Numbered from the stretch's first letter, positions 3,049-49,354 are shown. The stretch: 64,000 nt of DNA from Hyphomicrobiales bacterium (GCA_028285595.1 JANQOW010000048.1:25495-89494); one strand, 5' to 3'. Notes: a model not told the origin generated them from the letters alone. Made by a program: numbers and translations.

Positions 3049-3167
3049 GCCTTGCGGTGGTGAGATTTATTGAACGGACTGCAGGGGATTTTGCCCTTGC
3101 TGCGGGCCGTTTTGACGGTCTATGACGCCGCACGTTTAACGCTGAACACTCAAGGCACGTGAGACCC

Positions 3168-4400: not shown

Positions 4401-4404
4401 CGGC

Positions 4405-4434
4405 GTCCTTGCGCACGCGAGGACCTTCTGAGCC
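4405..4434. repeat. intergenic hairpin repeat, family B (gtccttgcg-N4-cgaggac + cttctgagcc)
   Basis: Sequence gtccttgcgcacgcgaggaccttctgagcc. Near-identical copies lie at 18128-18157 (same orientation) and 21086-21114 (reverse complement). Confidence 0.8.
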
Positions 4435-4460
4435 AAGGGATAGGTGTGAGCTATGGACCC

Positions 4461-7050: not shown

Positions 7051-7521
7051 CTATAAGTTCTGCATGCGGTCCAGCGCGCCTTGAAGGATATAGGCGGCGG
7101 CCATCTTATCCACCACTTCGGCCCGCTTGGCCCGGGAACTGTCGGCCTCCAGCAAGGTGCGGGTCACCGCGGAGGTGGACAAGCGCTCATCCCAGTACGC
7201 AATGGGAAGATCGGTCTTCCCGCGCAAGTTCCGCGCAAAGGCCCGGGTGGACTGGGCCCTTGGCCCTTCGCTGCCATCCATATTGATGGGAAGGCCCAGC
7301 ACAAAACCGCCGGCGTCTTCCTCGTCAGCAATGGCCAGAAGGTGTTCGGCATCCTGGGTAAACTTGACCCGCTTCCAGGTTTCCCGCGGCGTTGCAATCG
7401 AACGCATCACGTCGGACACCGCAATTCCAATGGTCTTGGTGCCCAGATCAAGGCCCAGCAGGCGCTGGCCGGGCCTTAGGGTGCCGGCCAGGGCCTCAAT
7501 GGATATGTCGGGCGCGCTCAT
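7051..7521 (-). CDS. ruvX: Holliday junction resolvase-like protein RuvX (YqgF)
   Basis: Only the C-terminal 156 aa of the 427-aa ORF look real. The start MSAPDISIE is at 7521. Motifs are [17 protein letters not shown] and [12 protein letters not shown]. Confidence 0.85.
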
Positions 7522-7626
7522 GAAACGCTGTTTAAGGCGCCGGGCCGAACAAAGCAAACCGTTGATTATCCCGGCAAAGGCCGTAAGCTTGCGGGAACAA
7601 AAATGCTGAAGACAGGAGTGGCAGAG

Positions 7627-8325
7627 ATGAAGATTACGTGGCTGGGCCATGCGGCCTATCGGGTGGAGATTGACGGTGCGGTGATTTTGATCGATCCGTT
7701 CATCAGCGGAAGCCCGGTTTATGAAGGCACCCTGGAAGAGGCATCCGCCGGCTGCACCCATGTGGCGCTGACCCACGGCCATGATGACCATGTGGGCGAT
7801 GCGGCGGAGATCTGCAAAAGCACCGGCGCCATGCTGCTGGCCAATTTCGAGCTGTGCATGTGGCTGCAAGGCAAGGGGGCGGAAAACATCAACCCGGCCA
7901 ACCATGGCGGCACATTGGACTGCGGCGCCTTCAAGGTGACCTTCACGGACGCCAACCACTCTTCCTCCACCATGGACGGCAGCACGCCTATTTATCTGGG
8001 CAACCCCAACGGCCTTGTGTTTGAGGGCGACGGCATCCCGACGCTCTATCACATGGGCGACACCAACATGTTCTCCGACATGGCTCTGATTGAGGAGTTC
8101 CACACGCCTGATATCGGCATCGTTCCCATCGGCGACCGCTTCACCATGGGCGCGCGCCAGGCGGCGATTGCCTGCAAGCGCTATTTCAACTTCAAGACCA
8201 TCCTGCCGTGCCACTTCGGCACCTTCCCGATCATTGATCCGGACGCCAGCAAGTTTCTGGCGGAGATGGGCGATGACGTGGACACTGTGCGCGTTCTGGA
8301 AGTGGGCGGCAGCATCGATCTCTAG
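7627..8325 (+). CDS. metal-dependent hydrolase, UPF0173 / beta-lactamase-fold
   Basis: [11 protein letters not shown] and [15 protein letters not shown] (HxHxDH motif). ATG 7627 follows caggag. Confidence 0.8.
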
Positions 8326-8441
8326 GCCCGCCAACGCTTCATTGTTGCCGTTGCGGTGCGCACCCGGCGGTGGTATCAGATCGCCTTGATTTGGTGGCGC
8401 CGCTGGAGGCGCTGCCGTTTCCCACCACTGGAGTTAGAGAC

Positions 8442-11743: not shown

Positions 11744-12748
11744 GTGGATGACGCGCGTGAGGTGAACGCAGTGGTGAGGCGCCCTGGCGGCTTGGTGTGG
11801 TTCTCGCTGCTGGTGAGCCTGTTTGGCACAGCCGGTCTCTTCCTTGTGGTGATCGCGAGCTACTACGGCCATTTGTGGTCTCCGCTGGATGCCTTCTCAC
11901 ATCTTCGCGTGCATCTGATCGGCGCAACCCTCGGCCTTGGCATCGCCGCTCTGTCTCTGATGACCGTGCAGCGCGTCCGGGTTGCCGTGCTGGTGCTTGT
12001 GGTAACCGCGGTCCTCACCGTGCTCTACGCGGGGCTATGGCCCATTTTGAGCCAATCGCGCGAGCCCCAGCCCGCCGCCGGGCCCAATGAGCGCGCCTTC
12101 AAGCTGATTTCCTTCAACAGCTGGTTCCATCACAAGAACCCCAAGCAGATCGCTGACTATCTTGCCACCGAAGATGCCGACGTGGTTGTCCTTGTGGAGT
12201 TCCCAAAGACCTCCAAGAAGATCCTCGGTCTTTTGGAAGCGCAGTTCCCGCATCAATATGACTGCAACGACACAGGACCCTTCTGCCACATCGTGGTGTT
12301 GTCGCGCTTCCCCTTTGCCGAAGTGGAAGCCAAGTCAGATTGGGAAGGCCCGCCCTTTGTGCGCGCCCTGTTCGGCAAGGAGCTTGGCGGGCTCACCGTC
12401 TTCGGCGTTCACTTCAGCCAGCCGTTCACGCCCAACTGGCAGTATTCGCAGATGCGTGCACTGGCCTCTGAAACCTTCGTGGCCAAGGGGCCGTTCATTG
12501 TGGCCGGCGATTTCAATGCCACCAAGGACAGCTTCATGGTCAACGCTTTCCAGGAGTATTCCGGCTCGTTGCGCATCACGTCGCTGCCGACCTGGCCCAC
12601 CTGGTTCTTCGAGCTGCCGCAGATCGGCATCGATCATATGTTCATCTCAAACGGTCTGCGCCCGTTGTCTCCGCCGAAGGTGCGCCCGAATGCGGGGTCC
12701 GACCACCTGCCCATCAAGGCTCATTTGGCGGTCAGAACCGTGCCTTGA
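11744..12748 (+). CDS. membrane-anchored endonuclease/exonuclease/phosphatase (EEP) family protein
   Basis: N-terminal hydrophobic segments, then VVVLVEF, VAGDFNAT, GIDHMF and GSDHLP, the EEP catalytic motifs. GTG start is uncertain. Confidence 0.75.
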   Translation: MDDAREVNAVVRRPGGLVWFSLLVSLFGTAGLFLVVIASYYGHLWSPLDAFSHLRVHLIGATLGLGIAALSLMTVQRVRVAVLVLVVTAVLTVLYAGLWPILSQSREPQPAAGPNERAFKLISFNSWFHHKNPKQIADYLATEDADVVVLVEFPKTSKKILGLLEAQFPHQYDCNDTGPFCHIVVLSRFPFAEVEAKSDWEGPPFVRALFGKELGGLTVFGVHFSQPFTPNWQYSQMRALASETFVAKGPFIVAGDFNATKDSFMVNAFQEYSGSLRITSLPTWPTWFFELPQIGIDHMFISNGLRPLSPPKVRPNAGSDHLPIKAHLAVRTVP

Positions 12749-13070
12749 GCACCGAAGTCTTGAGAAATTAAATCTGCCGTTTGTGCACCGTGGTTAGGAA
12801 TATATGAATCTCGGCCGATCGGTGTTCACTCCAATTTTAGGCAAATGCCGCCGGATCCCTCATATTTGAGGGTCAACAAATCCTTTCCTTAAAGGATTTG
12901 GTCAGATTTGCTTCAGCTCCCGTTAAGTCTACCGTTTAACGCGTTGTTTTCAGCCGCCCCGCATGATGAGGCCATGGCAACGAGGGGCGGCTAAGGCCAA
13001 GCCCAATAAGCCAGGGGACAAAGATGAAATCACCCAAAAAGGGTGAACAACAAAAGGCAGGGATTTGAAA

Positions 13071-13340
13071 ATGGCACGTATGGAAATCGTATCGGGAGCT
13101 GACATTGCAGACGCTGGATCTGTTTCTTCTGGAGCGCTCCTGCAGTTGGGGATCATGTATTCTTTGGGCCAGGAAGTGGAGCGTGACCTGATCGCAGCCC
13201 ACAAGTGGTTCAACCTGGCGGCTTTGCGCGGCAACGAATGCGCCAAACAGTATCGCCGTGATATTTCAAGCGAAATGAGCCCGTCTGAGATCGCCGAAGC
13301 ACAGCGCGAAGCCCGCGAGTGGCTCTACACCGTACACTAA
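13071..13340 (+). CDS. Sel1-repeat (TPR-like) small protein
   Basis: LGIMYSLGQEVERDLIAAHKWFNLAALRGN matches the Sel1 repeat pattern. ATG 13071 follows aaggcaggga. Confidence 0.7.
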   Translation: MARMEIVSGADIADAGSVSSGALLQLGIMYSLGQEVERDLIAAHKWFNLAALRGNECAKQYRRDISSEMSPSEIAEAQREAREWLYTVH

Positions 13341-13400
13341 GAGTTTAAAGCGAGACCCGAAAACGGGCTCGGTCCTGGAACACCAGGAGGCGTCAACAAG

Positions 13401-13439
13401 CATCCCGGATGGCGAAAGCTGTCCGGGATGTTTGCATTT
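13401..13439 (+). terminator. candidate intrinsic terminator
   Basis: Perfect 9-bp stem catcccgga / tccgggatg with a 12-nt loop, followed by tttgcattt. It lies between convergent genes. Confidence 0.5.
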
Positions 13440-13463
13440 GGCAAACCGGAAAGTCAGAGAAGA

Positions 13464-13754
13464 TCAATCCCAGGTGTTGGAGCGCTGGAACTGATTGCCG
13501 AACTGGTGGTCTTCAAAAGCCTCAAAACGCTCCAGGCGCTTGCGGCGCTCCAGCTTGTCGCGAAAGATCCGGGTCTCAATCTCAGCCGCCCGCGCGTTGA
13601 TGCGGTCCTGTTCGGTGTTGAACAGCGGAAGTCTCTCATTGTCCGGAGTATAGGTGTGGCTTTGAGGCACAAAGAACTCAGCCGCGGTGGCCGCAGGCGC
13701 GGCCACAACCGCAAGGCTCAAAGTCAGTCCCAGTCCGAGAAAAAATCTACGCAT
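13464..13754 (-). CDS. hypothetical secreted protein
   Basis: MRRFFLGLGLTLSLAVVAAPAATAAE signal-peptide-like N-terminus followed by a charged helical remainder. The start could also be 13766. Confidence 0.55.
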   Translation of the reverse strand: MRRFFLGLGLTLSLAVVAAPAATAAEFFVPQSHTYTPDNERLPLFNTEQDRINARAAEIETRIFRDKLERRKRLERFEAFEDHQFGNQFQRSNTWD

Positions 13755-13928
13755 GACAAGTGTCATCCCCGTGAAATAATGGCGCGCGTCGCGCATGATC
13801 TTCGTTACCCGAAGCTATATCATTTTCCAGATTCGCCCCGCCAGCAAAACCGTTACACGGCAAGCGCAAATCACTGTGAAGCTTAATGGTTGATTTGGGC
13901 TTACCTGTGATCATTGATCAAAATTCCG

Positions 13929-14168
13929 TCATTCTTCACGGCCTTCAGCCCGCAGCTTGTCCTTAAGTTCACCGGCAAGCTCCTCAGACCCGCTTTCCAG
14001 CGCATAGACATAGGCCTGGGTGTAGCGGAAATAGGCCTCCTCGGTGCGGCCGGCCGCCTCCGAGAGCTGCGCGGCGTCCCGGTAGAGCTGTGCGATGCGG
14101 CGCTTGTCTTCGCGTTCGTGGGCGCTGAGGAGGGCGTCCTCAAGCGCCCGTTCCCGGGGCGTTGCCAC
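13929..14168 (-). CDS. hypothetical small helical protein
   Basis: 79-aa ORF starting 4 nt downstream of the transglycosylase gene on the same strand. No family recognised. Confidence 0.5.
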   Translation of the reverse strand: MATPRERALEDALLSAHEREDKRRIAQLYRDAAQLSEAAGRTEEAYFRYTQAYVYALESGSEELAGELKDKLRAEGREE

Positions 14169-21836: not shown

Positions 21837-22885
21837 GTGTCTGCGACCTCCTCAAACACGCTTGGCAAGGTGCTCTGAAGCGCCGGATCCATCCATTCAG
21901 GCACCGGCATCTCCTTTTCGCGCAGGAATGCAGGGTTGTAGAGCTTGGAGAGATAGCGCGAGCCATAGTCGCACAAGATCGTCACAAGGGTGTGGCCGGG
22001 CCCCAGTTCACGGGCAAGACGGATGGCACCGGCAATGTTGATGCCCGATGAGCCGCCAAGGCACATGCCTTCCTCATGCACCAGGGGGAAGATGATGTTG
22101 AGGGCGTCCGCGTCCGGGATCTCAAACTGGCGGTCCGGTGTGAAGCCTTCCAGGTTCGCGGTGATCCGCCCTTGGCCGATGCCTTCCATGAGCGAGGAGC
22201 CTTCTGCTTTCAGCTCCCCATCCCGGTAATAGCGGTAAAGGGCAGCGCCTTCCGGATCGGTCAGGGCGATCTTGATGTCCGGGTTCTTGGAGCGCAGATA
22301 TTCTGCCGTGCCGGTCAGCGTCCCGCCGGAGCCCACTGCGCAACTGAAGCCATCGATCTTGCCGCCGGTCTGCTCCCAGATTTCAGGGCCCGTGGTCTCA
22401 ATATGGGCCTGACGGTTGGCCACATTGTCGAACTGGTTGGCCCAGACCGCGCCCTCGGGATGTTCCGCGTTCAAGCGCTCGGCCAGGCGGCCGGAATAGC
22501 GCACGAAATTGTTGGGGTTGCGGTAGGGTGCGGCAGGCACCTGCACCAGCTCCGCGCCGAGCATGCGCAGCGCATCTTTCTTCTCTTCGGTTTGCGTCTC
22601 CGGGATCACGATTACCGTGCGCATGCCCATGGATCCCGCCACCATGGCAAGGCCTATCCCTGTATTCCCGGCCGTGCCTTCAACAATGATGCCGCCGGGG
22701 CCGATTGCCTTGCGCTTCACCGCATCCTGGATGATGGACAGCGCGGCCCGGTCTTTCACCGATTCGCTGGGGTTCATGAATTCGGCTTTGCCCAGGATCG
22801 TGCAGCCGGTCTCTTCAGAGGCGCGCTTCAGCTTGATCAGCGGTGTGTTGCCGATGGTTGAAGCGACGGTATCGTGGATGTTCAT
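21833..22885 (-). CDS. PLP-dependent cysteine synthase / CBS-like (CysK family) protein
   Basis: IGNTPLIKL and NPSESVKDRAAL (PLP-lysine motif), plus GTGGT-like SGGTLTGT. At 350 aa it is longer than a typical CysK. Confidence 0.8.
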   Translation of the reverse strand: MNIHDTVASTIGNTPLIKLKRASEETGCTILGKAEFMNPSESVKDRAALSIIQDAVKRKAIGPGGIIVEGTAGNTGIGLAMVAGSMGMRTVIVIPETQTEEKKDALRMLGAELVQVPAAPYRNPNNFVRYSGRLAERLNAEHPEGAVWANQFDNVANRQAHIETTGPEIWEQTGGKIDGFSCAVGSGGTLTGTAEYLRSKNPDIKIALTDPEGAALYRYYRDGELKAEGSSLMEGIGQGRITANLEGFTPDRQFEIPDADALNIIFPLVHEEGMCLGGSSGINIAGAIRLARELGPGHTLVTILCDYGSRYLSKLYNPAFLREKEMPVPEWMDPALQSTLPSVFEEVADT

Positions 22886-22953
22886 AAGGGTCAGGCCCGG
22901 TCATATGGAAAGATTGGCGAGCCCAGATACATAAGCCCGATGGGCCTGGCTTT

Positions 22954-23520
22954 CTAGAATATTCGGTGCACAAAAGTGGTGCACACATATTTCGGGCCGC
23001 TTTTGGGCGGCGCGCCGCGGTGCCGGTAGGTCCAGCCCACGGGGAAAAACGCAATACGCCCGGCCACCGGCTTGATGCGCACGTCCTGATCTTCAAATTC
23101 CGTATGTCCGCCTCTGTCCACAGTGTTGAAGTACCACTGCGCGGCGAGAACGCGGGTCTGGTTTTGAGCGGAGTTATCATCGATGTGCCAGTGAAACTGG
23201 CCGCCGGGATCATACTTCTTCACCCTCAGCGGTTCGGCATGCAGATCTTTGTGGTCGGATCCTGCCAAAAACTTCACATCCGCCTGATAGCGTCCCAGGA
23301 ACTGGGAAAGTGAGCTCTGCAACGCGGAGATCATATCTCCCCAGCTGTCTTGCGGCAGCACGAGCTCGGTGGTCTGTTTTCCGGCCAGATCCAGCTCTGC
23401 CCCTGCGTTTCCGGAGACTTTTCCCTGTTCGCGCGACGGATCTGCATCAAAGCGCGCAATGATCTGTTCGCACACCGCCAGGTCCAGGGCCTCGTCGTAA
23501 AATTTGATGAACTTGGGCAC
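22954..23520 (-). CDS. 2OG-Fe(II) oxygenase superfamily protein
   Basis: HWHIDD (HxD) with a downstream GGHTEF His and RIAFFP. 188 aa. Confidence 0.65.
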   Translation of the reverse strand: MPKFIKFYDEALDLAVCEQIIARFDADPSREQGKVSGNAGAELDLAGKQTTELVLPQDSWGDMISALQSSLSQFLGRYQADVKFLAGSDHKDLHAEPLRVKKYDPGGQFHWHIDDNSAQNQTRVLAAQWYFNTVDRGGHTEFEDQDVRIKPVAGRIAFFPVGWTYRHRGAPPKSGPKYVCTTFVHRIF

Positions 23521-23878
23521 GGGGTTATGTGTTCCGATTCAATGAATTGATCCGATTCTCATAACTGAGAAGAGACAAGTCAAGCCAATCTCCAAAATGG
23601 AGGCAAAATCTTCACCAATTAGAGCGACTGTGCGCACAAGCTGAGGTTTACGGAAAAAATTATTTCATTTTTCAGCAACTTCAGGTAGGTGGAACTCGCG
23701 GTGTGAAGACCGCCGACCACCGCGCAAACAGTGGGAAGAAGCCGAGGGATCCTTATGCCGTTCTTATCTTGTTACGTTGGTCTCCATCTGCGAGCCCTGA
23801 CCAAGCGGTAGTTGCGCCGCCGGTGCTTTCCCGGTCACCCGCGCATTACCTCATGCCGTTCAGGTCACCCAACACTCC

Positions 23879-24757
23879 ATGACAACGCAACCTCAAACAC
23901 GTGAACGTCTCAATGATCACCGTAAGGGATTGTTGATAACGGGTATTGGTGCGTTTCTCATGACGTTCGACATTCCACTGGTGAGATTGGCGCATAGCGA
24001 CGAGTGGACAGTGGTCTACGTGCGCGGATTATGCGTGTTTTTTGTGATGCTGGGCTATTGGTTCTGGACCCACTACCGGCGCGGCAATCAGGTCCCGTTT
24101 ATCAACGGCATCGAAGGTTTTGCGGCTGCCGCCACCTTCGCGGTGACCAACATCTCGTTCATGACGGCCATCCACCACACAAGCGCCGCGAATGCGGTGT
24201 TCATTTTGGCGTTTGCGCCCCTGTTTGCGGCCATACTGTCCCGCATTTTTTTGGCAGAGCCTGTGCGGTCTCACACCTGGGTCGCGATTGCGGTTGCAAT
24301 TGTGGGGGTTTTGATTATTGCAACCTCAGGTTTAGGAACGGGACACCTGTTCGGAGACCTCATGGCGCTGATCGCGGCCACATCTTTGGCCTGTTCGCTC
24401 ACCATTATGCGATGGTCCGGCAAGGATATGACCTTTTCGCCCGGCTTCGGCAGTTTGCTGACGGCGATTGTGGCGGTGTGGTTTGCCGATCCGTTCTCGC
24501 TGAACCTCACGCAGGTAAGCTTGCTGGGCTTCAACAGTCTTCTCATCATGCCAATTTCGCTTGGCCTGTTGGCGCTGGGCACGCGCTATATTTCCGCGCC
24601 TGAAGTGGCCATGCTCATGTTGTTGGATTCCTTCCTTGCGCCCGTTTGGGTGTGGCTGGTCATCGGTGAGATCCCCACCACCCAAGGGCTGATCGGCGGC
24701 GCTATTGTGGTGTCTGCAATACTGGCCCACAGCTATGTACAAGCTAAGCGTGCATAA
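23879..24757 (+). CDS. DMT superfamily (EamA-like) transporter
   Basis: 292 aa with about 10 hydrophobic segments in a duplicated EamA-like arrangement. Confidence 0.8.
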   Translation: MTTQPQTRERLNDHRKGLLITGIGAFLMTFDIPLVRLAHSDEWTVVYVRGLCVFFVMLGYWFWTHYRRGNQVPFINGIEGFAAAATFAVTNISFMTAIHHTSAANAVFILAFAPLFAAILSRIFLAEPVRSHTWVAIAVAIVGVLIIATSGLGTGHLFGDLMALIAATSLACSLTIMRWSGKDMTFSPGFGSLLTAIVAVWFADPFSLNLTQVSLLGFNSLLIMPISLGLLALGTRYISAPEVAMLMLLDSFLAPVWVWLVIGEIPTTQGLIGGAIVVSAILAHSYVQAKRA

Positions 24758-24834
24758 TTTGACGCTGCATTTAGCCTGATTGTTTACCGAATGGTAATGG
24801 CGAAATGGGATCTTAGTCACATTATCCGGGCCAG

Positions 24835-25665
24835 TTGCAGATTGGTCTGACACGAGAAATGAGCTTGCTAAGTGCCGGGGGGGACTTGCGAAGAATGCAG
24901 AGCGCCCAACTGTGGATAAGCGACGGAAAGCTTATCGAGATCGATTCAGAAGTTATCGAGAGACGCGGTGTTGACGCATTGATGCGCGAGGACAGGCTGG
25001 TTCTCATCACGGTCAACGCCCGGGGCACCTCCATTCATTGGCATCTGGCCAGCGCCAGTTGGTCGTCTTTGTACTCGGTCATCTCGCACTTGCGGGTTTG
25101 CCCGCCGCCGTTTCAGCTCAATTTCTTCGTGGAAGCCTGGGCGAGCGAGCGTTTCGTGCGGGCCAAGGAGGCCGCCAAGCGCATTGATGAGTTGATCGGC
25201 AAAGCCGATGTGCGCCTCTCCAAGAAGGCCTATGTGTACGAGAAGGAGATGGACAAGCGGGCCATGCCACAGCTTTTGCAACTCGCTTATGATGAGCATG
25301 CGGCGCTGACGGACCACCGCGTCGACACGGTGTTTCATGAAGACAGCAACATGTTTTATCTGGAGCGGGCCGGAGAGAACTCTCTGCTCTCACGGATTAT
25401 GGGAGAGCATTGGACCGCGGAGTTTGCAGGCCGTGAAGAAATCCCCGATACGGATTTCGATTATGAGGTGATGTCTCACTACGAAAAGGTGCTGAGCGCC
25501 GATGTTCCGCGTTTCGACCATGTGTTTGCCACCATCACCCCGCCGGGCGGCTCGCCCATCTGGGCCTCATACTTGCGCCTGATCGTGCCGTCGACCTTCG
25601 AGGATGGCCGCGTGGGCGTGTCTTCGTTCTGCCAGACCAGTCCGGCAACGCCCAAGCTCATCTAG
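24835..25665 (+). CDS. hypothetical protein with PAS_5 (DUF1457)-like C-terminal half
   Basis: The C-terminal DFDYEVMSHYEKVLSADVPRFDHVFATI...YLRLIVP resembles the alphaproteobacterial PAS_5 pattern. The N-terminal ~130 aa are unrecognised and the start is uncertain. Confidence 0.5.
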   Translation: MQIGLTREMSLLSAGGDLRRMQSAQLWISDGKLIEIDSEVIERRGVDALMREDRLVLITVNARGTSIHWHLASASWSSLYSVISHLRVCPPPFQLNFFVEAWASERFVRAKEAAKRIDELIGKADVRLSKKAYVYEKEMDKRAMPQLLQLAYDEHAALTDHRVDTVFHEDSNMFYLERAGENSLLSRIMGEHWTAEFAGREEIPDTDFDYEVMSHYEKVLSADVPRFDHVFATITPPGGSPIWASYLRLIVPSTFEDGRVGVSSFCQTSPATPKLI

Positions 25666-25685
25666 AGCTCTAGCCGCCCTGAGGG

Positions 25686-26384
25686 TCAATCCTCGCGGTA
25701 CAAGGCCTCGTCAATAAGCACTTCAAGATCTGACCGGCGCGCCAACATCAGCCATTCGTTTTTGGACGCCCCTTCCGGCTCCCATTCCCAGCGATAGACG
25801 CTGGGTTCAATGATGGGATACCCCCAGCGCACCGAATGTCCGCGCCGAGAGAGATGCTCATACATGCAGCCCCAAATGGCGGAAGGATGCCATTTCAGAA
25901 GCGCCAGGATCATGCCGTAGCGCGAAAACAGGTCCGGCAGGCTTTCCCGGCGCCGGTCGGGATGCACCCAGGCTTCGCCAAAATAAACCACTTGGCCGTT
26001 CACCTGCTCGGTTTGTGAGCCCAGCGGCGGGCGCACGAACGTGGGCACCACCGGCTCGGAGCGCTTATGGTAGAGCCCGAGCATCCATGTCAGGCTCCAA
26101 TCGGCAAGATTGGTATCGATGTAGTCAACCCGATAGGCCTGCAGCATCACCGTTTCGTTCTGGTCATTCATGGCCCGCATCCAGAAGGCCTTATGCTCCC
26201 CGAACGCATTGATTTCTTCATCGAACATGGGGCTGACCAGATCGCCGCGGACGCGCATGCGTTCCCGCTTGAACTCAGCCATATCGCCGCTCATTTCCGT
26301 CGTCAGGCCGTGAGCGCGCGCACGTTCATCCAGGCGCAAGAGCGCTCTGGCTGCGCGCAACGGGTTATTTAATGCTTCGACCAC
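25686..26384 (-). CDS. hypothetical protein (Trp-rich, no family recognised)
   Basis: 232-aa ORF with 10 Trp, convergent with the previous gene. No motifs recognised. Confidence 0.55.
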   Translation of the reverse strand: MVEALNNPLRAARALLRLDERARAHGLTTEMSGDMAEFKRERMRVRGDLVSPMFDEEINAFGEHKAFWMRAMNDQNETVMLQAYRVDYIDTNLADWSLTWMLGLYHKRSEPVVPTFVRPPLGSQTEQVNGQVVYFGEAWVHPDRRRESLPDLFSRYGMILALLKWHPSAIWGCMYEHLSRRGHSVRWGYPIIEPSVYRWEWEPEGASKNEWLMLARRSDLEVLIDEALYRED

Positions 26385-26565
26385 TCAACCCCACCGCTTT
26401 AATTCCGTGCCATAATGGCACATTCGCCCTCCGGATTTGCGCCCAGATGAGGCAATATTTGCATCGTTGCAAGTCTGATGCTTGAAAACAGCGTCAGCTA
26501 GAGCCGTTGGTGCCACCATTTGGGTGCGTTGCCGGAGGCCGGTGAGGCCGCTAGAACTGCGGGTC

Positions 26566-26781
26566 ATGGTATTGCTGATTCGCAGAGTTTGGACGGCCCT
26601 GTTCCTGCTCATGATCTTTTGGAGCGTTCTGGCCGGGGCCCCGGAGATTTGGCCCGCCGACGCCAAGACCTATCTTGCTTTTCTCATTTGCGCCGTCTGG
26701 GCACCTGTGGCCTTCGTGCTCACCATGGCGCAGCAAGCCACAGGCAAGTCGGCGCCGTTCAAGGACGACAGAGGCGTCTAG
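26566..26781 (+). CDS. hypothetical small two-helix membrane protein
   Basis: MVLLIRRVWTALFLLMIFWSVLAG and YLAFLICAVWAPVAFVLTMA are hydrophobic segments. The track ORF begins at 26482, so the start is uncertain. Confidence 0.35.
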   Translation: MVLLIRRVWTALFLLMIFWSVLAGAPEIWPADAKTYLAFLICAVWAPVAFVLTMAQQATGKSAPFKDDRGV

Positions 26782-27015
26782 CTGTCGGAGGGGGCTTTTC
26801 TCATGACAGCGTATGGCAACTTATCACACTTGTTTCTGGGGGCCGTAAAACGGATGCAGATCAGGAGCTTGCGAGGCTTTACTGGGACTGCACACCCAGA
26901 AACGTCGCTAACCAGGAGGTGCCCGATCCACCATGCTGCCATCTGTCAGCCGTTTCGTGAGCGCAGTTGACGCACGCGCGCTGTAGAAAATCTGTGCCCG
27001 CCTGAAGAAACCGCG

Positions 27016-27030
27016 TTAACCTTTTGTTAA
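27016..27030 (-). promoter_or_regulatory. CtrA-type binding box TTAA-N7-TTAAC
   Basis: The plus strand reads ttaaccttttgttaa. The reverse complement reads TTAA-caaaagg-TTAAC, a full match to the Caulobacter CtrA consensus. Confidence 0.55.
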
Positions 27031-27060
27031 TCGTCGATGAACGCGTTTTGGACCTAACGA

Positions 27061-27080
27061 TTGTCCACACTTTTTCCACA
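27061..27080 (+). promoter_or_regulatory. two adjacent DnaA-box-like 9-mers
   Basis: ttgtccaca (27061-27069) and ttttccaca (27072-27080), each 8/9 against TTATCCACA. Confidence 0.4.
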
Positions 27081-27125
27081 AATCATCCAGATTACCGAAG
27101 CTCAGATAAGAGCAAATCATACGAT

Positions 27126-27134
27126 CCTGGATAA
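27126..27134 (-). promoter_or_regulatory. weaker inverted DnaA-box-like 9-mer
   Basis: cctggataa against TGTGGATAA (7/9). Confidence 0.25.
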
Positions 27135-27314
27135 ACGCAAAACGAACTCTGCTCGCCTCAAGCTGAAAATGCCGTTTTGTTAATGAAGCAGTTTAAGTGG
27201 TGAATCCTTTAAACCAATTTATTGGCTTTTAGAGACGTTTCTCAGGCGAATTGTTTAGCCAATCTCCTTCATACAGGGATTCGCCTTTGGAACATCAAGT
27301 GTTGTTTGGGTCAA

Positions 27315-27329
27315 TTAACCAACTGTTAA
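27315..27329 (+). promoter_or_regulatory. CtrA-type binding box TTAA-N7-TTAA
   Basis: ttaaccaactgttaa, located 78 nt upstream of ATG 27407. Confidence 0.5.
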
Positions 27330-27406
27330 GCTTTCGGTGGCTGGAAGCGGGAAAGGAGCGGTAAAACGACACCCGCAGATCAACCACAAGTGGTGAGTAG
27401 AAGGTC

Positions 27407-27718
27407 ATGTCGGATCTTTCCATTGGACTGCTGATCGAAAGCGAAAGGCAAAGGATCAAACGCCGTTGCATGGAGATTGACGATCAGTTCGACGCGCTGG
27501 GCGAGGAACGCCAGGCACTGCTGACGATCGCAGAAGCGCTGAATTCCCTGGAAAACCTCTACGCGGAAACGGGACAAACCGCAGACGCATCCCTGGCATT
27601 TACCACGGCCGGCGCTGCCCAGAGAACCACAGCGCCTGACTGGGGCGATGGTCACAGCATGGACCCGTCAGACCGGCTGAAACTGATCAACCGGATCTTG
27701 GAAACACCAACCGTCTGA
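27407..27718 (+). CDS. hypothetical coiled-coil protein
   Basis: 103-aa ORF. ATG is preceded by gagtagaaggtc. The N-terminal half is helical and charged. No family recognised. Confidence 0.5.
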   Translation: MSDLSIGLLIESERQRIKRRCMEIDDQFDALGEERQALLTIAEALNSLENLYAETGQTADASLAFTTAGAAQRTTAPDWGDGHSMDPSDRLKLINRILETPTV

Positions 27719-27832
27719 AGCTCTGCGCTTGCGGTTTTCATGGAATTGGCAAACTTCTGTCATTGTGCCGACATGCCGAAACGGCATGTGTGCCCGCATC
27801 AATCACAGTAAAGTTGCGGAAGGCCAGATCCA

Positions 27833-28021
27833 GTGACCCAGGACCGTTTAGAGACGTGCCGACCCTTCACACCCGTCGATCAAAGCGTGGAAGACATGCT
27901 CCACGATGCGCGCACGCTTGCCCAGCTCAAGGCGGAGGGCGTTCAGGTTGAAAATCTGACCGATCTTCTCACGGCCATCCGCACGCGCGTGCTGGCACAG
28001 CGCTGGCGCAGCGCAGCGTAG
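27833..28021 (+). CDS. hypothetical small protein
   Basis: 62-aa ORF with a GTG start. No family recognised. Confidence 0.35.
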   Translation: MTQDRLETCRPFTPVDQSVEDMLHDARTLAQLKAEGVQVENLTDLLTAIRTRVLAQRWRSAA

Positions 28022-28420: not shown

Positions 28421-28496
28421 TGGCTCCCCGAGCAGGACTCGAACCTGCGACAAAGCGGTTAACAGCCGCTTGCTCTACCAACTGAGCTATCGGGGA
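28421..28496 (-). tRNA. tRNA-Asn (GUU)
   Basis: The reverse complement tccccgatagctcagttggtagagcaagcggctgttaaccgctttgtcgcaggttcgagtcctgctcggggagcca folds as a cloverleaf. The anticodon loop is cuGUUaa and CCA is encoded. Confidence 0.95.
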
Positions 28497-28981: not shown

Positions 28982-29055
28982 GGCCACGTGGCGGAGTGGT
29001 GACGCAGCGGACTGCAAATCCGTATACCCCGGTTCGATTCCGGGCGTGGCCTCCA
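28982..29055 (+). tRNA. tRNA-Cys (GCA)
   Basis: ggccacgtggcggagtggtgacgcagcggactgcaaatccgtataccccggttcgattccgggcgtggcctcca. The acceptor stem ggccacg pairs with cgtggcc, the anticodon loop is cuGCAaa and CCA is encoded. Confidence 0.95.
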
Positions 29056-43883: not shown

Positions 43884-44232
43884 GCCGGCTTGTGCCCCCG
43901 AACAGCCATTTTGTGCACGCAAGCGCTGAGTGTGAGCCCAAAACTGGCCATGCTTTTGCCAGTCATTCGGCATGACATTAACTCTATTGGAAAATGTGGC
44001 GGCGGACATGCCGCCTGAAGCATATACCCTAAATGGTTGATTCCGGACGCAGAGTCGGACAGCGCTAAAGTCATCCAAATTAGTCGAATCAAGTTTCATA
44101 AAATCCCGGTATCGATTCGCAGCAGCCGTTAAGAAATCGAACTTACGCCCTCTGACAGCCAACCTATGGCCCCCCCTCCATGCGCAGCTTCGCGCGGGGA
44201 TCTACACGACTGTTACGAGAGGGAAATCATAA

Positions 44233-47200
44233 ATGTTCGACGACGAGTTCACTGGCTCTGAAAAGGGCGATACCTTCAAACTTGGCAGCGGCCGGCAATC
44301 TGTGGAAGGCAGTTCAGGCCGGGACCGGATCATCTCTTACGGTGACGCAGGCGAGCCAGACCCGGCGCAAACGGATGGCGCGCAAGGGCGATACGGCCCA
44401 GCCTTGCCGGAAGGCTCCGGCGATGATGAGGTCTCAGGCGGGGCCGGCGGGGACATTTTCGAGTTCCGCGCGCTTCTCAATGCGACCGACGAGGTAAAAG
44501 CCCAGCACACCGGCAAGAACGGCGCTGTGAACTGGCGCGGCGTGGCCGGGGAGAATGATGATGTGCACGGCCATTGGGTTGAAGGGTTCGGCAACGACAC
44601 GGTTTTGGATTACTCCAAGGAGGATGGCGATCAAATCATCATCCGCGGCCACACCGTAGAGATTGCCAGCATCACCTACGGCGAGGATGCAGGCGGCAGT
44701 TACTCCCTGATCACTGTGATCAGTCAGCAGGGTGATGGCGGCGCCGGTGGGGCCAATACACAAACCGGTGCTCATGACGAGGACCCGTTGGGCACCGTCA
44801 AGGTCTATGGCGACAAGGTGACCGAAGCAGACGTGGACGTCCAGGCTGCGGGCGTGTTTGACGGGGTGGACCAATTGGCTGAGGCCAATAAGCTCGCCGA
44901 TTATAACGGCGGCTCCCAGCAATTCGGCAGCCGGATTGATGGCGAAACCATCGAAACGGCTCCTGCGGACATCGAAACCAAAGACACGATCACCATAGGA
45001 GAGGGCGCCCAAACGGTGATTGCCGGCGCCGGGCGGGATATCCTGGTGAGTTATTCCGATGATGGCGAGCCTGATCCGGCCCAGACCAACGGCGCCGACG
45101 GTCGGGTCAATCCTCCCGTTGCAGAGGGCGAAGCCAATGATGTGCTGATTGGCGGCCAAGGGGCCGACCTCTTCGCATTCAAACTCTTGCTGGATGCCAA
45201 GCAGGAGATCTTGGACAAACACACCCGCGACGATGGAACCGTAAACTGGCGCAAGGTGGCCGGTGAGAACGAGAATGTCCACGACCACTGGGTGCAGGGC
45301 ATCGGCGACGACATGATCAAGGATTTCTCCAATCAGGACGGGGACAAGATCCTGATCCGTGGCCACACAGTTGAGATACAAGCTATTGAGTATGGTGAGG
45401 ATGACGGCGGGGACTACTCTTTGATCATCCTACGTTCCCAGCAGGGCGACAATGGCGGCGCCCATGATGAAGATCCCCTCGGCTCCATCAAGGTTTATGG
45501 CGACAAGGTCACCGAAGATCAGATCAAGCTCCAGGCAGCCGGCGTGTTCGATGGTGCCGATAAGCTCGATCAGATCGAGCAGACACCAAACGCCCCGATT
45601 GCCGAACCTGAGGTCGCTTCCGAGCCGGCCGGGAACCTGGGCGGTCAGGAGTTCGAAGGTTCAAACCGCGGTAACACGATCGTTCTGGGCAGCGGACAGC
45701 AAACCGCAGACGGCAATGCCGGGTCAGACAGGATCATCTCCTATGGGGATGCCGGCGAGCCCGATCCAGCGCAAACCGAGGGCGCGGAGGGCCGGGTCAC
45801 ACCGCCAATACCCGATGGTTCCGCCAATGACATCCTGACAGGCGGCTCTGGCCGGGACATCTTTGAGTTCCGCGCGCTTTTGAACGCCAAAGCAGAGGTG
45901 ATTGCCGAGCACACCAACAAGAACGGATCCGTCAACTGGCGCAAGGTGGCCGGTGAGAATGATGATGTGCACAATCACTGGGTTCAGGGTTTCGGTGACG
46001 ATATCATCACCGACTACACCAAGGCCGATGGCGACAAGATCATCATCCGCGGTCACACGGTGGAAATTACCGACATTACCTATGGTGAAGACGAAGGGGG
46101 GTCTTACTCTCTCATCCGGGTGATCAGCCAGCAAGGCGACGGCGGTGCGGGCGGGGCCAACACAGCCACCGGAGCTCATGATGAGGATCCTTTGGGCTCT
46201 GTGAAGGTCTATGGTGACAAAGTCACCGAAAAGGACATCAAGGTGCAGGCCGCAGGCGTGTTCGACGGTGTCGATCAGTTGGTCCAGGCGGACAAACTTG
46301 CCGATTACAATGGCGGCAGTCAGTCGTTCGGAAGCCGGACGGATGGCGAGGAGATCGAAACCGCGCCCGACGCTCTGAAAACCAAGGATTACATCCGCTT
46401 AGGCGAAGGCGCTCAGACGGTTGATGCCGGGGCGGGCAATGACACCATTGTCATCTACTCCGACGCAGGCGAGCCTGATCCCGCTCAAACCGAAGGCGCA
46501 GCCGGCCGGGTTAATCCACCGGTGGATCCTTCGACGGTCAACGACGTGGTGAGCGGCGGCCAGGGCAGAGACATCTTTAAGTTCAACCTGCTGCTGGATG
46601 CCACCGATGAGGTCAAGGCTCAGCACACCCGATCCGACGGAAGCGTCAATTGGCGCGGCGTGGCCGGGGAAAATGACGATGTGCATTCCCACTGGGTGCA
46701 AGGCATCGGCCAGGATGTGATCAAGGATTTCTCCAACCAGGACGGCGACCAGATCATTGTGCGCGGTCACACTGTGGAGATCGCAGACATCACCTATGGG
46801 GAGGATGAAAACGGTGACTATTCCCTGATCATCTTGCGGTCCCAACAGGGCGATGGCGGTGCCGGCGGCGCGAACACGCAAACCGGAGCCCATGATGAGG
46901 ACCCGTTGGGCTCAATCATGGTCTATGGCGATAAGGTGACCGAAAACGACATTAAGGTGCAGGCCGCAGGCGTCTTTGACGGAGTCGACAAACTGGAGAC
47001 CATTACGTCGGACGTCCAGGGTCCTGTGACCGCAGGTGTCACGCCTTCATCGGGCTCCTACACCGGCACAGAGCGCAGTGATCTCATCATCGCGGGCAGC
47101 GGCCAGCAAACCGTCAACGGCGGTCGAGGGTCAGACAGGATCATCTCCTTTGGCGATGGGGGTGAACCTGATCCGGCCCAAACCGAGGGCTCCAAGGGCA

Positions 47201-48447
47201 GAGTTAACCCAGCCCTGGCGGTCGCGATCGCCAATGATGTGCTCACCGGCGGACTTGGCCGCGATACCTTTGAGTTCCGCGCTTTGCTGAATGCCAAAGA
47301 GGAGATTTTAGAGGAGTACACCCGCGAAGATGGCCGGGTGAACTGGCGTGGGGTGGCCGGTGAGAATGATGAGGTTCACCAGCACTGGGTTGAAGGTTGG
47401 GGTGATGACATCATCACAGACTATTCCCAGGCTGAGGGCGATAAGATCATCATCCGCGGTCACACGGTCGAGGTGGCCAGCATCGAATATGGTGCAGATG
47501 ACGGCGGTGAATTCTCTCTCATCACGGTGATCAGCCAACAGGGAGACGGCGGGGCCGGTGGCTTCAACACCGCAACCGGTGCGCATGACGAGGACCCGCT
47601 CGGCACCATCAAAGTCTATGGCGACAAAGTCACCGAAGCCGATCTTCAAGTGAAGGCAGCCAATATCTTCGACGGTATCGACCAGTTGGCCCAGGCAGAT
47701 ACGCTTGCGGCCTATAACGGCGGCACCCAGGAGTTCGGTAGCCGCGTTGACGGGACCGAGATCGTGACCTCCGAAGCATCGGCAAGCACCCGCGATCTGG
47801 TGAAGGTGGGCGAGGGCGCACAGACCGTCAACGCCGGGGCGGGCCGCGACACCATCGTCATCTACTCAGATGGCGGTGAGCCTGACCCCGCGCAGACCGA
47901 CGGTGCTGAAGGCCGGGTCACCCCGTCGGTTCCTCCAGCGTCCTCCGCTGATATTATCAGCGGCGGGCAGGGGCGTGACACGTTCCTCTTCAACCTGCTT
48001 CTGGATGCCAAACAGGAGATCTTGGACAAGCATACCCGAGACGATGGCAGTGTGAACTGGCGCCGGATCGCCGGGGAGAATGATGATGTGCACGACCATT
48101 GGGTGCGCGCCATCGGGAACGACGTGATCTTGGACTACTCAAATCAAGACCGCGACCAGATCATTCTCAGAGGTCATACGGTTGAGGTTGCCGCTATCGA
48201 GTATGGAGAAGATGACGGCGGCGATTATTCGCTGATCATTCTGCGCTCGCAGCAAGGCGACAATGGCGGTGCTCATGATGAGGACCCGCTTGGCTCTATC
48301 CGGGTTTACGGCGATCGGGTGGAAGAAGGCGACCTGAAGGTTCAGTCCCGCGTGTTCGACGGTGTCGATAAGCTCGACGGCATCATGAACACCGGATTGG
48401 CCGACGAACTCGTGCCGCTTGTCTTTACCGAAGACCTCATCGCCTAG
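44233..48447 (+). CDS. giant acidic repeat protein, 6 modules of ~234 aa, each with one RTX-like GGxGxD motif
   Basis: 1404-aa ORF with a gagaggga RBS. The GEPDPAQT codon run recurs at 44350, 45064, 45754, 46468, 47161 and 47875. Motifs include GGAGGDIFEF, GGQGADLFAF and GGSGRDIFEF. No N-terminal signal peptide. Confidence 0.85.
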   Translation: MFDDEFTGSEKGDTFKLGSGRQSVEGSSGRDRIISYGDAGEPDPAQTDGAQGRYGPALPEGSGDDEVSGGAGGDIFEFRALLNATDEVKAQHTGKNGAVNWRGVAGENDDVHGHWVEGFGNDTVLDYSKEDGDQIIIRGHTVEIASITYGEDAGGSYSLITVISQQGDGGAGGANTQTGAHDEDPLGTVKVYGDKVTEADVDVQAAGVFDGVDQLAEANKLADYNGGSQQFGSRIDGETIETAPADIETKDTITIGEGAQTVIAGAGRDILVSYSDDGEPDPAQTNGADGRVNPPVAEGEANDVLIGGQGADLFAFKLLLDAKQEILDKHTRDDGTVNWRKVAGENENVHDHWVQGIGDDMIKDFSNQDGDKILIRGHTVEIQAIEYGEDDGGDYSLIILRSQQGDNGGAHDEDPLGSIKVYGDKVTEDQIKLQAAGVFDGADKLDQIEQTPNAPIAEPEVASEPAGNLGGQEFEGSNRGNTIVLGSGQQTADGNAGSDRIISYGDAGEPDPAQTEGAEGRVTPPIPDGSANDILTGGSGRDIFEFRALLNAKAEVIAEHTNKNGSVNWRKVAGENDDVHNHWVQGFGDDIITDYTKADGDKIIIRGHTVEITDITYGEDEGGSYSLIRVISQQGDGGAGGANTATGAHDEDPLGSVKVYGDKVTEKDIKVQAAGVFDGVDQLVQADKLADYNGGSQSFGSRTDGEEIETAPDALKTKDYIRLGEGAQTVDAGAGNDTIVIYSDAGEPDPAQTEGAAGRVNPPVDPSTVNDVVSGGQGRDIFKFNLLLDATDEVKAQHTRSDGSVNWRGVAGENDDVHSHWVQGIGQDVIKDFSNQDGDQIIVRGHTVEIADITYGEDENGDYSLIILRSQQGDGGAGGANTQTGAHDEDPLGSIMVYGDKVTENDIKVQAAGVFDGVDKLETITSDVQGPVTAGVTPSSGSYTGTERSDLIIAGSGQQTVNGGRGSDRIISFGDGGEPDPAQTEGSKGRVNPALAVAIANDVLTGGLGRDTFEFRALLNAKEEILEEYTREDGRVNWRGVAGENDEVHQHWVEGWGDDIITDYSQAEGDKIIIRGHTVEVASIEYGADDGGEFSLITVISQQGDGGAGGFNTATGAHDEDPLGTIKVYGDKVTEADLQVKAANIFDGIDQLAQADTLAAYNGGTQEFGSRVDGTEIVTSEASASTRDLVKVGEGAQTVNAGAGRDTIVIYSDGGEPDPAQTDGAEGRVTPSVPPASSADIISGGQGRDTFLFNLLLDAKQEILDKHTRDDGSVNWRRIAGENDDVHDHWVRAIGNDVILDYSNQDRDQIILRGHTVEVAAIEYGEDDGGDYSLIILRSQQGDNGGAHDEDPLGSIRVYGDRVEEGDLKVQSRVFDGVDKLDGIMNTGLADELVPLVFTEDLIA

Positions 48448-48502: not shown

Positions 48503-49354
48503 TCACAGACGCACGCCTTTTTTGCCCGCCAGATCCTGGACAAACTGCCAGGCGACCCGCCCGGACCGTGAGCCCCGCGTGGTTGACCATTCGACAGCGC
48601 CGGCCCTGAGCTCCTCGTCCGAAACGCTCATGCCATAGTGATCCACATAGCCACGGATCATCTCGAAGAACTCGTCTTGAGAGCAGTTGTGGAAGCCAAG
48701 CCACAAGCCGAAGCGATCTGACAACGAGACCTTCTCCTGCACCGCCTCTGACGGGTTGATGGCGGTGGAGCGTTCATTCTCGATCATATCTCGGGGCAGA
48801 AGATGCCGCCGGTTGGACGTGGCGTAAAACAGCATATTGTCCGGGCGGCCTTCGATGCCGCCCTCCAGCGCAGCCTTCAGCGATTTGTAGCTGGTATCGT
48901 CATGGTCAAAGGACAGGTCATCGCAAAAGACGATAAAGCGGCAATCGGTGTGCGTCCGCACGATGGTCATGAGCGTGGGCAGGCTCTCAATATCCTCCCG
49001 GTGGATCTCCACCAGCTTAAGGGCCGCTCCACCGGCGCTGACGTCGTTGTGGCAGGCCTTAACCAGGGAACTCTTGCCCATGCCTCGCGCGCCCCACAAC
49101 AGGGCGTTGTTCGCCGGGAGGCCCGAGGCAAACCGCTCGGTGTTCTCCAGCAACTGATCGCGCACCCGGTCGATGCCCTTCAGCAGGTTCATTTCCACCC
49201 GATTGACGGCGGGCACGGGCTGCAATGTGCCTGAGGACTGCCACACAAAGGCGCTGGCCGCATCCAAGTCGGGAACTTCAGGGGCAGGGGGGGCGAGGCG
49301 GTCTAAGGCAGCCGCGATCTGTTTCAGCACATCTAGGGTGGCAGCATCGGTCAT
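48503..49354 (-). CDS. ATP-binding protein, DUF815 (AAA-like)
   Basis: LLWGARGMGKSSLVKA Walker A and FIVFCDDLSF Walker B-like. 283 aa. Confidence 0.8.
   Translation of the reverse strand: MTDAATLDVLKQIAAALDRLAPPAPEVPDLDAASAFVWQSSGTLQPVPAVNRVEMNLLKGIDRVRDQLLENTERFASGLPANNALLWGARGMGKSSLVKACHNDVSAGGAALKLVEIHREDIESLPTLMTIVRTHTDCRFIVFCDDLSFDHDDTSYKSLKAALEGGIEGRPDNMLFYATSNRRHLLPRDMIENERSTAINPSEAVQEKVSLSDRFGLWLGFHNCSQDEFFEMIRGYVDHYGMSVSDEELRAGAVEWSTTRGSRSGRVAWQFVQDLAGKKGVRL

Follow-up and report, generated by a model that had tools for sequence, protein, structure and literature searches.

A 1404-residue acidic protein of six alternating modules in a Hyphomicrobiales bacterium is a new variant of the RTX family

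The gene considered here occupies positions 44233 to 48447 of a 64,000-nucleotide stretch of DNA from a Hyphomicrobiales bacterium (GCA_028285595.1, JANQOW010000048.1:25495-89494), which was analysed as a whole and is called the window in the following. The complete open reading frame (ORF) at 44233..48447, located on the plus strand and including the stop codon, encodes a protein of 1404 amino acids (aa) and 147.7 kDa with six modules of two alternating types, and within the RTX family the locus represents a new variant in both architecture and sequence, its protein being built from a module family without a name. The gene product is probably a secreted, calcium-folded structural or binding protein that would most likely use type I export by a system encoded elsewhere in the genome. 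The protein has an isoelectric point (pI) of 4.19, contains 264 aspartate and glutamate versus 103 lysine and arginine residues and is devoid of cysteine, while a hydrophobic stretch or signal peptide was looked for at its N-terminus and not found; the C-terminus reads ...ADELVPLVFTEDLIA. A preliminary description of this DNA, made from the sequence alone, had given the same ORF coordinates and length and had noted the very acidic composition and the missing signal peptide, all of which are borne out by ORF and composition analysis.

The start codon is preceded by a 349-nucleotide (nt) intergenic region (43884-44232), at the end of which a Shine-Dalgarno-like GAGAGGG is located. No match to a sigma-70-like promoter was found inside this intergenic region, no intrinsic terminator adjoins the gene, no terminator-like hairpin lies between the gene and the downstream DUF815 gene, and Rfam gave no regulatory RNA near the gene. 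Exactly over the gene, in the interval 44001-48000, the AT skew is strongly positive (0.13-0.16) and the GC skew positive (~0.065), which is most simply explained by the Gly/Asp/Glu-rich composition of the product with its purine-rich GGN, GAY and GAR codons and not by replication strand bias. Antisense ORFs within the gene, such as the one of 315 aa on the minus strand at 44434-45381, were taken as by-products of a G+C-rich repetitive coding sequence, as the selection signal sits on the plus frame.

The hallmark of the protein is its in-register repetition. The GEPDPAQT run starts at nt 44350, 45064, 45754, 46468, 47161 and 47875, with offsets of 714, 690, 714, 693 and 714 nt, and an independent seed-and-extend nucleotide repeat search recovered six copies with identical spacings and 63-74% identity over 300 nt. 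Tandem Repeats Finder detected no repeat in the gene, given the strong divergence of the copies and a period above the limit of the program. On the protein level, identity amounts to 65-75% between A modules, 67-68% between B modules and 54-66% between A and B modules. The motifs GGxGxD.F.F, VNWR.VAGEN..VH.HW, RGHTVE and AHDEDPLG..VYGD are found in all six modules, and ADYNGG..FGSR..IETAP stands after A modules. A six-fold repetition at 54-75% identity over about 230 aa is far beyond chance, and the alternating modules, their spacings and the motifs quoted in the preliminary description were recovered by the self-comparison at both the nucleotide and the protein level. The features of the gene are as follows.

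44217..44223, plus strand: Shine-Dalgarno-like GAGAGGG, as read from the sequence itself, 9 nt ahead of the ATG.
44233..48447, plus strand: ORF of 1404 aa, under selection in comparison with orthologues, identical product in Logan run SRR20820731.
44233..44874, plus strand: module A1, aa 1-214, with a degenerate RTX block including the GEPDPAQT loop, then a His-rich C-terminal part.
44875..44946, plus strand: A1-to-B1 connector, ordered, aa 215-238, ...ADYNGGSQQFGSRIDGETIETAP...; the equivalent in unit 2 has a predicted local distance difference test score (pLDDT) of about 96-97.
44947..45564, plus strand: module B1, aa 239-444.
45565..45636, plus strand: B1-to-A2 linker, flexible, Pro/Glu/Ala-rich, aa 445-468; equivalent B-to-A segment with pLDDT 34-82.
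45637..46278, plus strand: module A2, aa 469-682, modelled singly; conserved His at aa 580, 582, 608 and 649.
46279..46350, plus strand: A2-to-B2 connector, ordered, aa 683-706; pLDDT about 96-97 in the di-module model.
46351..46992, plus strand: module B2, aa 707-920.
46993..47043, plus strand: B2-to-A3 linker, flexible, Ser/Thr/Pro/Gly-rich, aa 921-937; pLDDT <50, residues 461-469 of the modelled unit.
47044..47685, plus strand: module A3, aa 938-1151; holds the best Pfam PF00353 stretch (aa 945-970).
47686..47757, plus strand: A3-to-B3 connector, presumably ordered by homology to unit 2, aa 1152-1175.
47758..48372, plus strand: module B3, aa 1176-1380.
48373..48444, plus strand: C-terminal tail, candidate uncleaved type I secretion signal, aa 1381-1404, ends ...VPLVFTEDLIA.

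The distance from A to B modules is 238 aa in every full-length six-module protein, while the distance from B to A modules varies between 229 and 240 aa among orthologues. Correspondingly, in the AlphaFold model of an A+B unit the A-to-B connector (ADYNGG...IETAP) reaches a pLDDT of ~97 versus 34-82 for the B-to-A linker. The invariant spacing with an ordered connector on the one hand and the variable spacing on the other hand suggest that the protein is best described as three rigid A+B units of ~50 kDa each on flexible linkers, an arrangement that would explain the super-repeat of 1404-1407 nt.

With respect to the nature of the module, Pfam recognizes PF00353 (HemolysinCabind) weakly, with 29.6 bits (cut-off 23) and one stretch in each of the six modules, and the NCBIfam scan of the protein gave no meaningful match. 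The RTX repeats are degenerate, with about one canonical GGxGxDxFxF per module. A module profile built from 38 sequences nevertheless matches the CyaA RTX domain (E 5.7e-11), the AlgE4 R-module (E 1e-3) and lipases of type I secretion systems (T1SS; E 3e-3), always at profile positions 2-80, and the ...D.L.GGxGxDxFxF of the module aligns with the motif closing each CyaA block. The statement that each module carries a single RTX-like motif is thus an undercount, as the first ~80 residues align to nonapeptide runs and the whole module is predicted to be RTX-like. On the other hand, the view that the module is not a named domain stands: no named model spans it, and confident matches to a characterized family by hidden Markov models do not extend beyond its first third.

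AlphaFold (AF2) predicts both the A+B unit (pLDDT 90.9, predicted template modelling score (pTM) 0.89) and the single module A2 (pLDDT 91.3, pTM 0.89) with confidence. In a Foldseek comparison with the PDB, all significant matches belong to RTX beta-roll domains from T1SS substrates; the template modelling (TM) scores, with the labels TMt and TMq as given by the program, are listed here.

AlgE6 R1 (2ml1): E 2.2e-4, probability 1.0, TMt 0.54, TMq 0.40.
AlgE6 R3 (2ml3): TMt 0.50.
Serralysin C-terminal domains: TMq 0.41-0.43.
CyaA block V: TMt 0.43-0.45.

The models indicate that each ~214-residue module is a divergent, self-contained RTX block. Its first ~80 residues comprise four to five degenerate GGxGxDxUx turns split by the conserved 29-residue GEPDPAQT loop, and a further ~130 residues would complete and cap the beta-roll. 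Conserved acidic residues at turn positions (D31, D38, E41, D65 and D74) are, as judged from the alignment, compatible with calcium binding.

The closest parallel in organization is CyaA of Bordetella pertussis (block V; PDB 5cvw, 9p0c), which is exported by type I secretion and has blocks that fold with calcium. Both proteins are acidic, lack a signal peptide and consist of tandem self-contained blocks in which nonapeptide turns ending in GGxGxDTxxF are followed by a capping segment. However, CyaA blocks possess many canonical nonapeptides and short caps, whereas the module described here has ~4-5 degenerate turns split by the GEPDPAQT loop and a ~130-residue His-rich cap without sequence match; furthermore, in contrast to CyaA, the window protein contains no toxin, acylation or pore-forming domain, and its modules alternate between two subtypes. 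The best structural matches are the R-modules of AlgE4 and AlgE6 from Azotobacter vinelandii (2agm, 2ml1, 2ml3), which are equally tandem RTX-type beta-roll modules of secreted proteins and, with ~150-180 aa, of a size similar to the 214 aa of the window module, although the profile match is weak (E 1e-3) and confined to the nonapeptides or RTX turns, with TMq of 0.40-0.43. The R-modules, beta-roll modules of ~155 residues, have 4-7 canonical N-terminal nonapeptides instead of degenerate repeats with an inserted loop, lack the His-rich motifs and the GEPDPAQT loop and accompany catalytic epimerase A-modules, whereas the window protein is without any other domain according to Pfam, NCBIfam and its architecture. 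Matches of the protein to phasin_PhaP7 (26.9 bits versus a cut-off of 200), UspF, Metallophos and EMC1/EMC2 are far below the cut-offs and were discarded as noise. The weak NCBIfam match to phasin_PhaP7 (E 3.9e-6) at window positions 45229-45384 (aa 333-384), which covers the NAK..IL.KHT..DG..NW helix region of B modules, is probably compositional noise, yet recurs in homologues, as in P0020 at aa 800-855.

Although the protein had been considered an orphan, it has numerous relatives. A search of 5.8 billion proteins retrieved 96 homologous clusters at 90% identity, with Roseobacter, Roseovarius, Oricola and Hoeflea among the cultured holders, and the six-module profile matched 369 representative clusters (50% identity) in a set of 1.84 billion proteins, with E <= 1e-10 for 289 of these clusters. 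Four architectural classes can be distinguished, with homologous clusters designated by P numbers.

Class i, six modules, ~1403-1425 aa, 24-34-aa tail without RTX block: window protein, P0001, P0002, P0004-P0008.
Class ii, four modules and a 177-aa canonical RTX tail ending ...DDFxF: ~50 clusters from Roseobacter, Roseovarius, Sulfitobacter, Oricola and Hoeflea.
Class iii, four modules, RTX tail absent: P0064-P0071.
Class iv, one or two modules within large RTX proteins: P0074-P0096.

The four-module "calcium-binding proteins" of the Roseobacter group, YP_680875.1/ABG30189.1 of R. denitrificans and AEI96021.1 of R. litoralis, are true homologues with 55-65% identity, which share the A and B module types and the motifs with the window protein and carry generic annotation only. 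They differ from it by four modules followed by the 177-residue canonical RTX tail, by a first A-to-B connector of another type and by their genomic context. In relatives, the module is accompanied by Laminin_G_3, PA14, GLEYA and RTX repeats, a pattern typical of extracellular binding proteins.

In P0072 (aa 14-66 and 154-320) and P0073 the module is split by ~90 residues inserted directly after the GEP...Q loop, and these two proteins are annotated with PF13620 (CarboxypepD_reg-like) or PF17957; if this domain is the insert, the loop would be surface-exposed and tolerate a whole inserted domain. Module-bearing proteins also occur in metagenome-assembled genomes labelled Planctomycetota and Rhodobiaceae (loci L008-L010 and L014, the last with large Ser/Thr kinase genes adjoining the module gene), with a further, partial protein labelled Neptuniibacter (Gammaproteobacteria). 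These occurrences indicate that the module has spread beyond the Alphaproteobacteria.

The second half of the module holds a putative cluster of four histidines. Single modules were aligned with single-copy relatives as explicit module sub-sequences, as the full-length versions of the latter came out of register (13-26% identity). Among 94 non-redundant modules (<60% identity), selected from 564 complete modules in 229 proteins, H112, H114, H140 and H181 are conserved to 96-98% and D133, D184 and G187 to 98-100%. The His/Asp motif set of each module (VHxHW, D, GHT, AHxxD) is conserved more than most of the scaffold, and a Roseomonas-type minority subgroup has lost two of the four histidines while keeping the module. 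This pattern of conservation suggests the His cluster as a candidate transition-metal or catalytic site in every module. A cupin reading of the HxH was rejected on the basis of the fold, as no cupin is among the Foldseek matches. Of the two motifs that cupins carry on a jelly-roll barrel, motif 1 (G-x5-HxH-x3,4-E-x6-G) is only resembled by the G-x5-H-x-H-x2-E of the module and motif 2 (G-x5-PxG-x2-H-x3-N) is absent.

As to export, RTX proteins are described to have their repeats unfolded at cytoplasmic calcium levels, to be recognized by a C-terminal signal and to fold, driven by calcium, outside of the cell (PMC3034196). In all eight full-length six-module orthologues (the window protein, P0001, P0002 and P0004-P0008), the last five residues follow the motif [E/D][D/E][L/M]I[A/V], while the preceding ~15 residues are variable; P0003, a fragment of at least seven modules, ends with PELLV. 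Between the last RTX-like module and the C-terminus there are 24 aa. The terminal motif resembles the acidic-plus-hydrophobic extreme C-terminus of protease/lipase-type T1SS substrates. The four-module relatives possess a canonical RTX tail with local matches to RTX-toxin and serralysin models, and one of them, YP_680875.1 of R. denitrificans, the first 399 residues of which are identical to P0240 (four-module form), has been detected in the exoproteome with a normalized spectral abundance factor of 1.17, 1.12 and 1.09% in three replicates (PMC4949626, Table S5).

Type I secretion of the window protein, a reasonable suggestion of the preliminary description, is thus likely and now better supported by the RTX-type fold, the conserved acidic-hydrophobic C-terminus and the exoproteome detection of the four-module relative. 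By analogy with RTX proteins, from which we infer the secretion route of the six-module form, the modules would stay unfolded in the low-calcium cytoplasm and the acidic-hydrophobic C-terminus (...EDLIA) would be recognized by an ATP-binding cassette (ABC) transporter; outside of the cell, calcium would fold the modules successively from the C-terminus, which would pull the chain out. The extracellular protein may then act in surface or partner interaction, as in relatives this module is found together with lectin and adhesin domains. Each module may bind a transition metal through its His cluster. The calcium dependence, metal binding and biological role of the window protein are what we infer from these comparisons.

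Several observations weigh against a type I exported, calcium-folded protein. In the 30 larger ORFs scanned in the 64-kb window, no ABC, membrane fusion protein (MFP; HlyD) or TolC domain was found, in agreement with the preliminary description, and no T1SS genes are located within 10 kb of four homologues (P0004, P0061, P0019 and P0071). The canonical C-terminal RTX block of the four-module relatives is missing from the six-module class. The exoproteome evidence stems from the four-module form, and from Table S5 alone cell lysis could also account for it. Solved RTX domains resemble the models moderately (TM 0.4-0.54, root-mean-square deviation 7-10 A), and the C-terminal ~130 residues of the module are without sequence match in Pfam, NCBIfam and the PDB sequences.

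Another explanation would be that the locus is an assembly artefact, created by repeat collapse or expansion, or a decaying, unexpressed relic. This can be suspected from the long internal repeat in a metagenome-assembled contig and from the missing sigma-70 consensus promoter and intrinsic terminator beside the gene. However, the modules are 60-71% identical on the nucleotide level with a longest exact match of at most 26 nt, which cannot mislead an assembler, and the identical 1404-aa product has been assembled independently in Logan run SRR20820731; together, these two findings exclude an artefact of assembly, a possibility which the preliminary description had named as refuting its claim. 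The comparison of module copy number among relatives is in line with this, as the six modules are stable, position by position, in orthologues at 79-93% identity. In a module tree, the orthology is position-specific, with m1 grouping with m1 through to m6 with m6, and the separate A and B clades are both shared with four-module proteins, so that the ABABAB order is older than these lineages and has not been homogenized by gene conversion. The neighbourhood is also kept in the 79% orthologue P0004 (glmU, glmS, a TPR/SPOR protein, DUF502, FAA hydrolase, the gene, DUF815, SnoaL, yajC, secD and secF). The ratio of nonsynonymous to synonymous substitution rates (dN/dS) amounts to 0.049 and 0.082 in comparison with orthologues at 91% and 79% identity, within an overall range of 0.05-0.10 and with synonymous sites near saturation (dS >= 1); the frame is intact and the ribosome-binding site is good. 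Cumulatively, the gene is real and strongly constrained and its repeats are ancient, and the artefact or relic explanation is extremely improbable.

Instead of a soluble exoprotein, the gene could encode a protein of the RsaA type, secreted by type I export, re-attached to the cell and polymerized by calcium into a surface layer (S-layer) or surface lattice as a protective coat. The RTX S-layer proteins RsaA of Caulobacter and Crs/Csx of Campylobacter rectus are acidic, free of cysteine and equipped with an uncleaved C-terminal signal (PMC3034196), and the window protein shares with them the acidic, cysteine-free composition, a mass in the range of ~100-150 kDa and the RTX-type calcium-binding parts; the generic hallmarks of S-layer proteins given in PMC3034196 agree with its pI of 4.19, the absence of cysteine, the 147.7 kDa (within 40-200 kDa) and the RTX character. 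The absence of any other domain, the conserved core-genome position and the strong purifying selection are equally in line with such a coat protein, and RsaA is found among the weak Foldseek matches (6p5t, E 0.9). This match is, however, not significant, nor is there a significant sequence match to S-layer proteins, and unlike RsaA and Crs/Csx the window protein has no N-terminal anchoring domain, with only 14 residues ahead of module 1, and no rsaDE-like transporter genes adjacent to its gene. Moreover, the R. denitrificans relative accounts for about 1% of the exoproteome and is not dominant, and the module also occurs singly in lectin-rich multidomain proteins, which does not point to a lattice former. 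The coat is considered quite unlikely. Each module could, alternatively, be a catalytic or metal-scavenging unit of a secreted multi-site metalloenzyme or metal-capture protein, in which the RTX part serves export and folding only. Histidine is not a normal calcium ligand, and the 96-100% conservation seen for the four histidines and for several aspartates in the 94 diverse modules, above most of the scaffold, would fit such a function, as would the local resemblance to cupin metal motif 1 and the precedent of solved RTX relatives that flank catalytic domains (AlgE epimerases, serralysins and lipases). On the other hand, neither a cupin nor another metalloenzyme fold is among the structural matches, Pfam, NCBIfam and PDB sequences give no match over the His-rich part, the Roseomonas-type subgroup retains the module without two of the histidines, and six tandem catalytic copies would be unusual. 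This metal-centred explanation is considered unlikely.

A secreted, calcium-folded structural or binding protein as the preferred interpretation leaves room for a more far-reaching proposal, which we put forward as a tentative possibility: that the His-rich ~130-residue half constitutes an undescribed transition-metal site on an RTX beta-roll and that the family of ~370 clusters is a new class of secreted multi-site metalloproteins of marine Alphaproteobacteria, exported by type I secretion via a bare acidic-hydrophobic C-terminus without the canonical RTX block. If so, the metalloprotein might work as an enzyme outside of the cell or capture trace metals.

With respect to significance, RTX-like proteins make up a large share of the secretion of the marine Roseobacter group, and most are without known function (PMC4949626; PMC3933643). 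The locus defines a compact and recognizable module, as yet without a name, that is present in about 370 protein clusters. Confident models depict it as an RTX block that folds by itself and carries a His-rich cap, and a domain model for this module would replace the generic label "calcium-binding protein". The six-module form provides a test case of whether tandem non-canonical beta-roll blocks and a five-residue C-terminal motif suffice for type I export, while the His cluster as a concrete, testable candidate metal site makes the His-rich half worthy of experimental attention. In addition, as a stable core gene of an uncultured Hyphomicrobiales lineage, the six-module form can serve as a marker of this lineage. 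The assignment of the window to the lineage comes from GatB, whose best matches are metagenome-assembled genomes at 98%, 86% and 84%, whereas Pelagibacterium, Devosia, Roseibium and other named Hyphomicrobiales do not exceed 79%.

Elsewhere in the window, two tRNA genes, at 28424-28496 on the minus and 28982-29052 on the plus strand, adjoin a stretch of lower G+C content at 22001-28000 (0.55-0.58 versus 0.60-0.63 elsewhere) with negative AT skew, which may be an integration hotspot or island, and a second G+C dip (0.555) is located at 12001-14000 between gatB and a lytic transglycosylase gene. The ORF at 7051-8334 on the minus strand (427 aa) matches RuvX, a Holliday junction resolvase-like protein, at residues 290-422 only, and the N-terminal part of 289 residues either stems from over-extension of the ORF call or is a fused region. 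The ORFs at 3150-4436 (minus strand) and 3159-4400 (plus strand), each of more than 400 aa, overlap almost completely, and the minus-strand ORF is without Pfam match. Directly downstream of the six-module gene, the gene of a DUF815 AAA-type ATPase (48503-49354, minus strand) converges on it with a gap of 55 nt, and this pairing is kept in orthologous loci at 79-91% identity.

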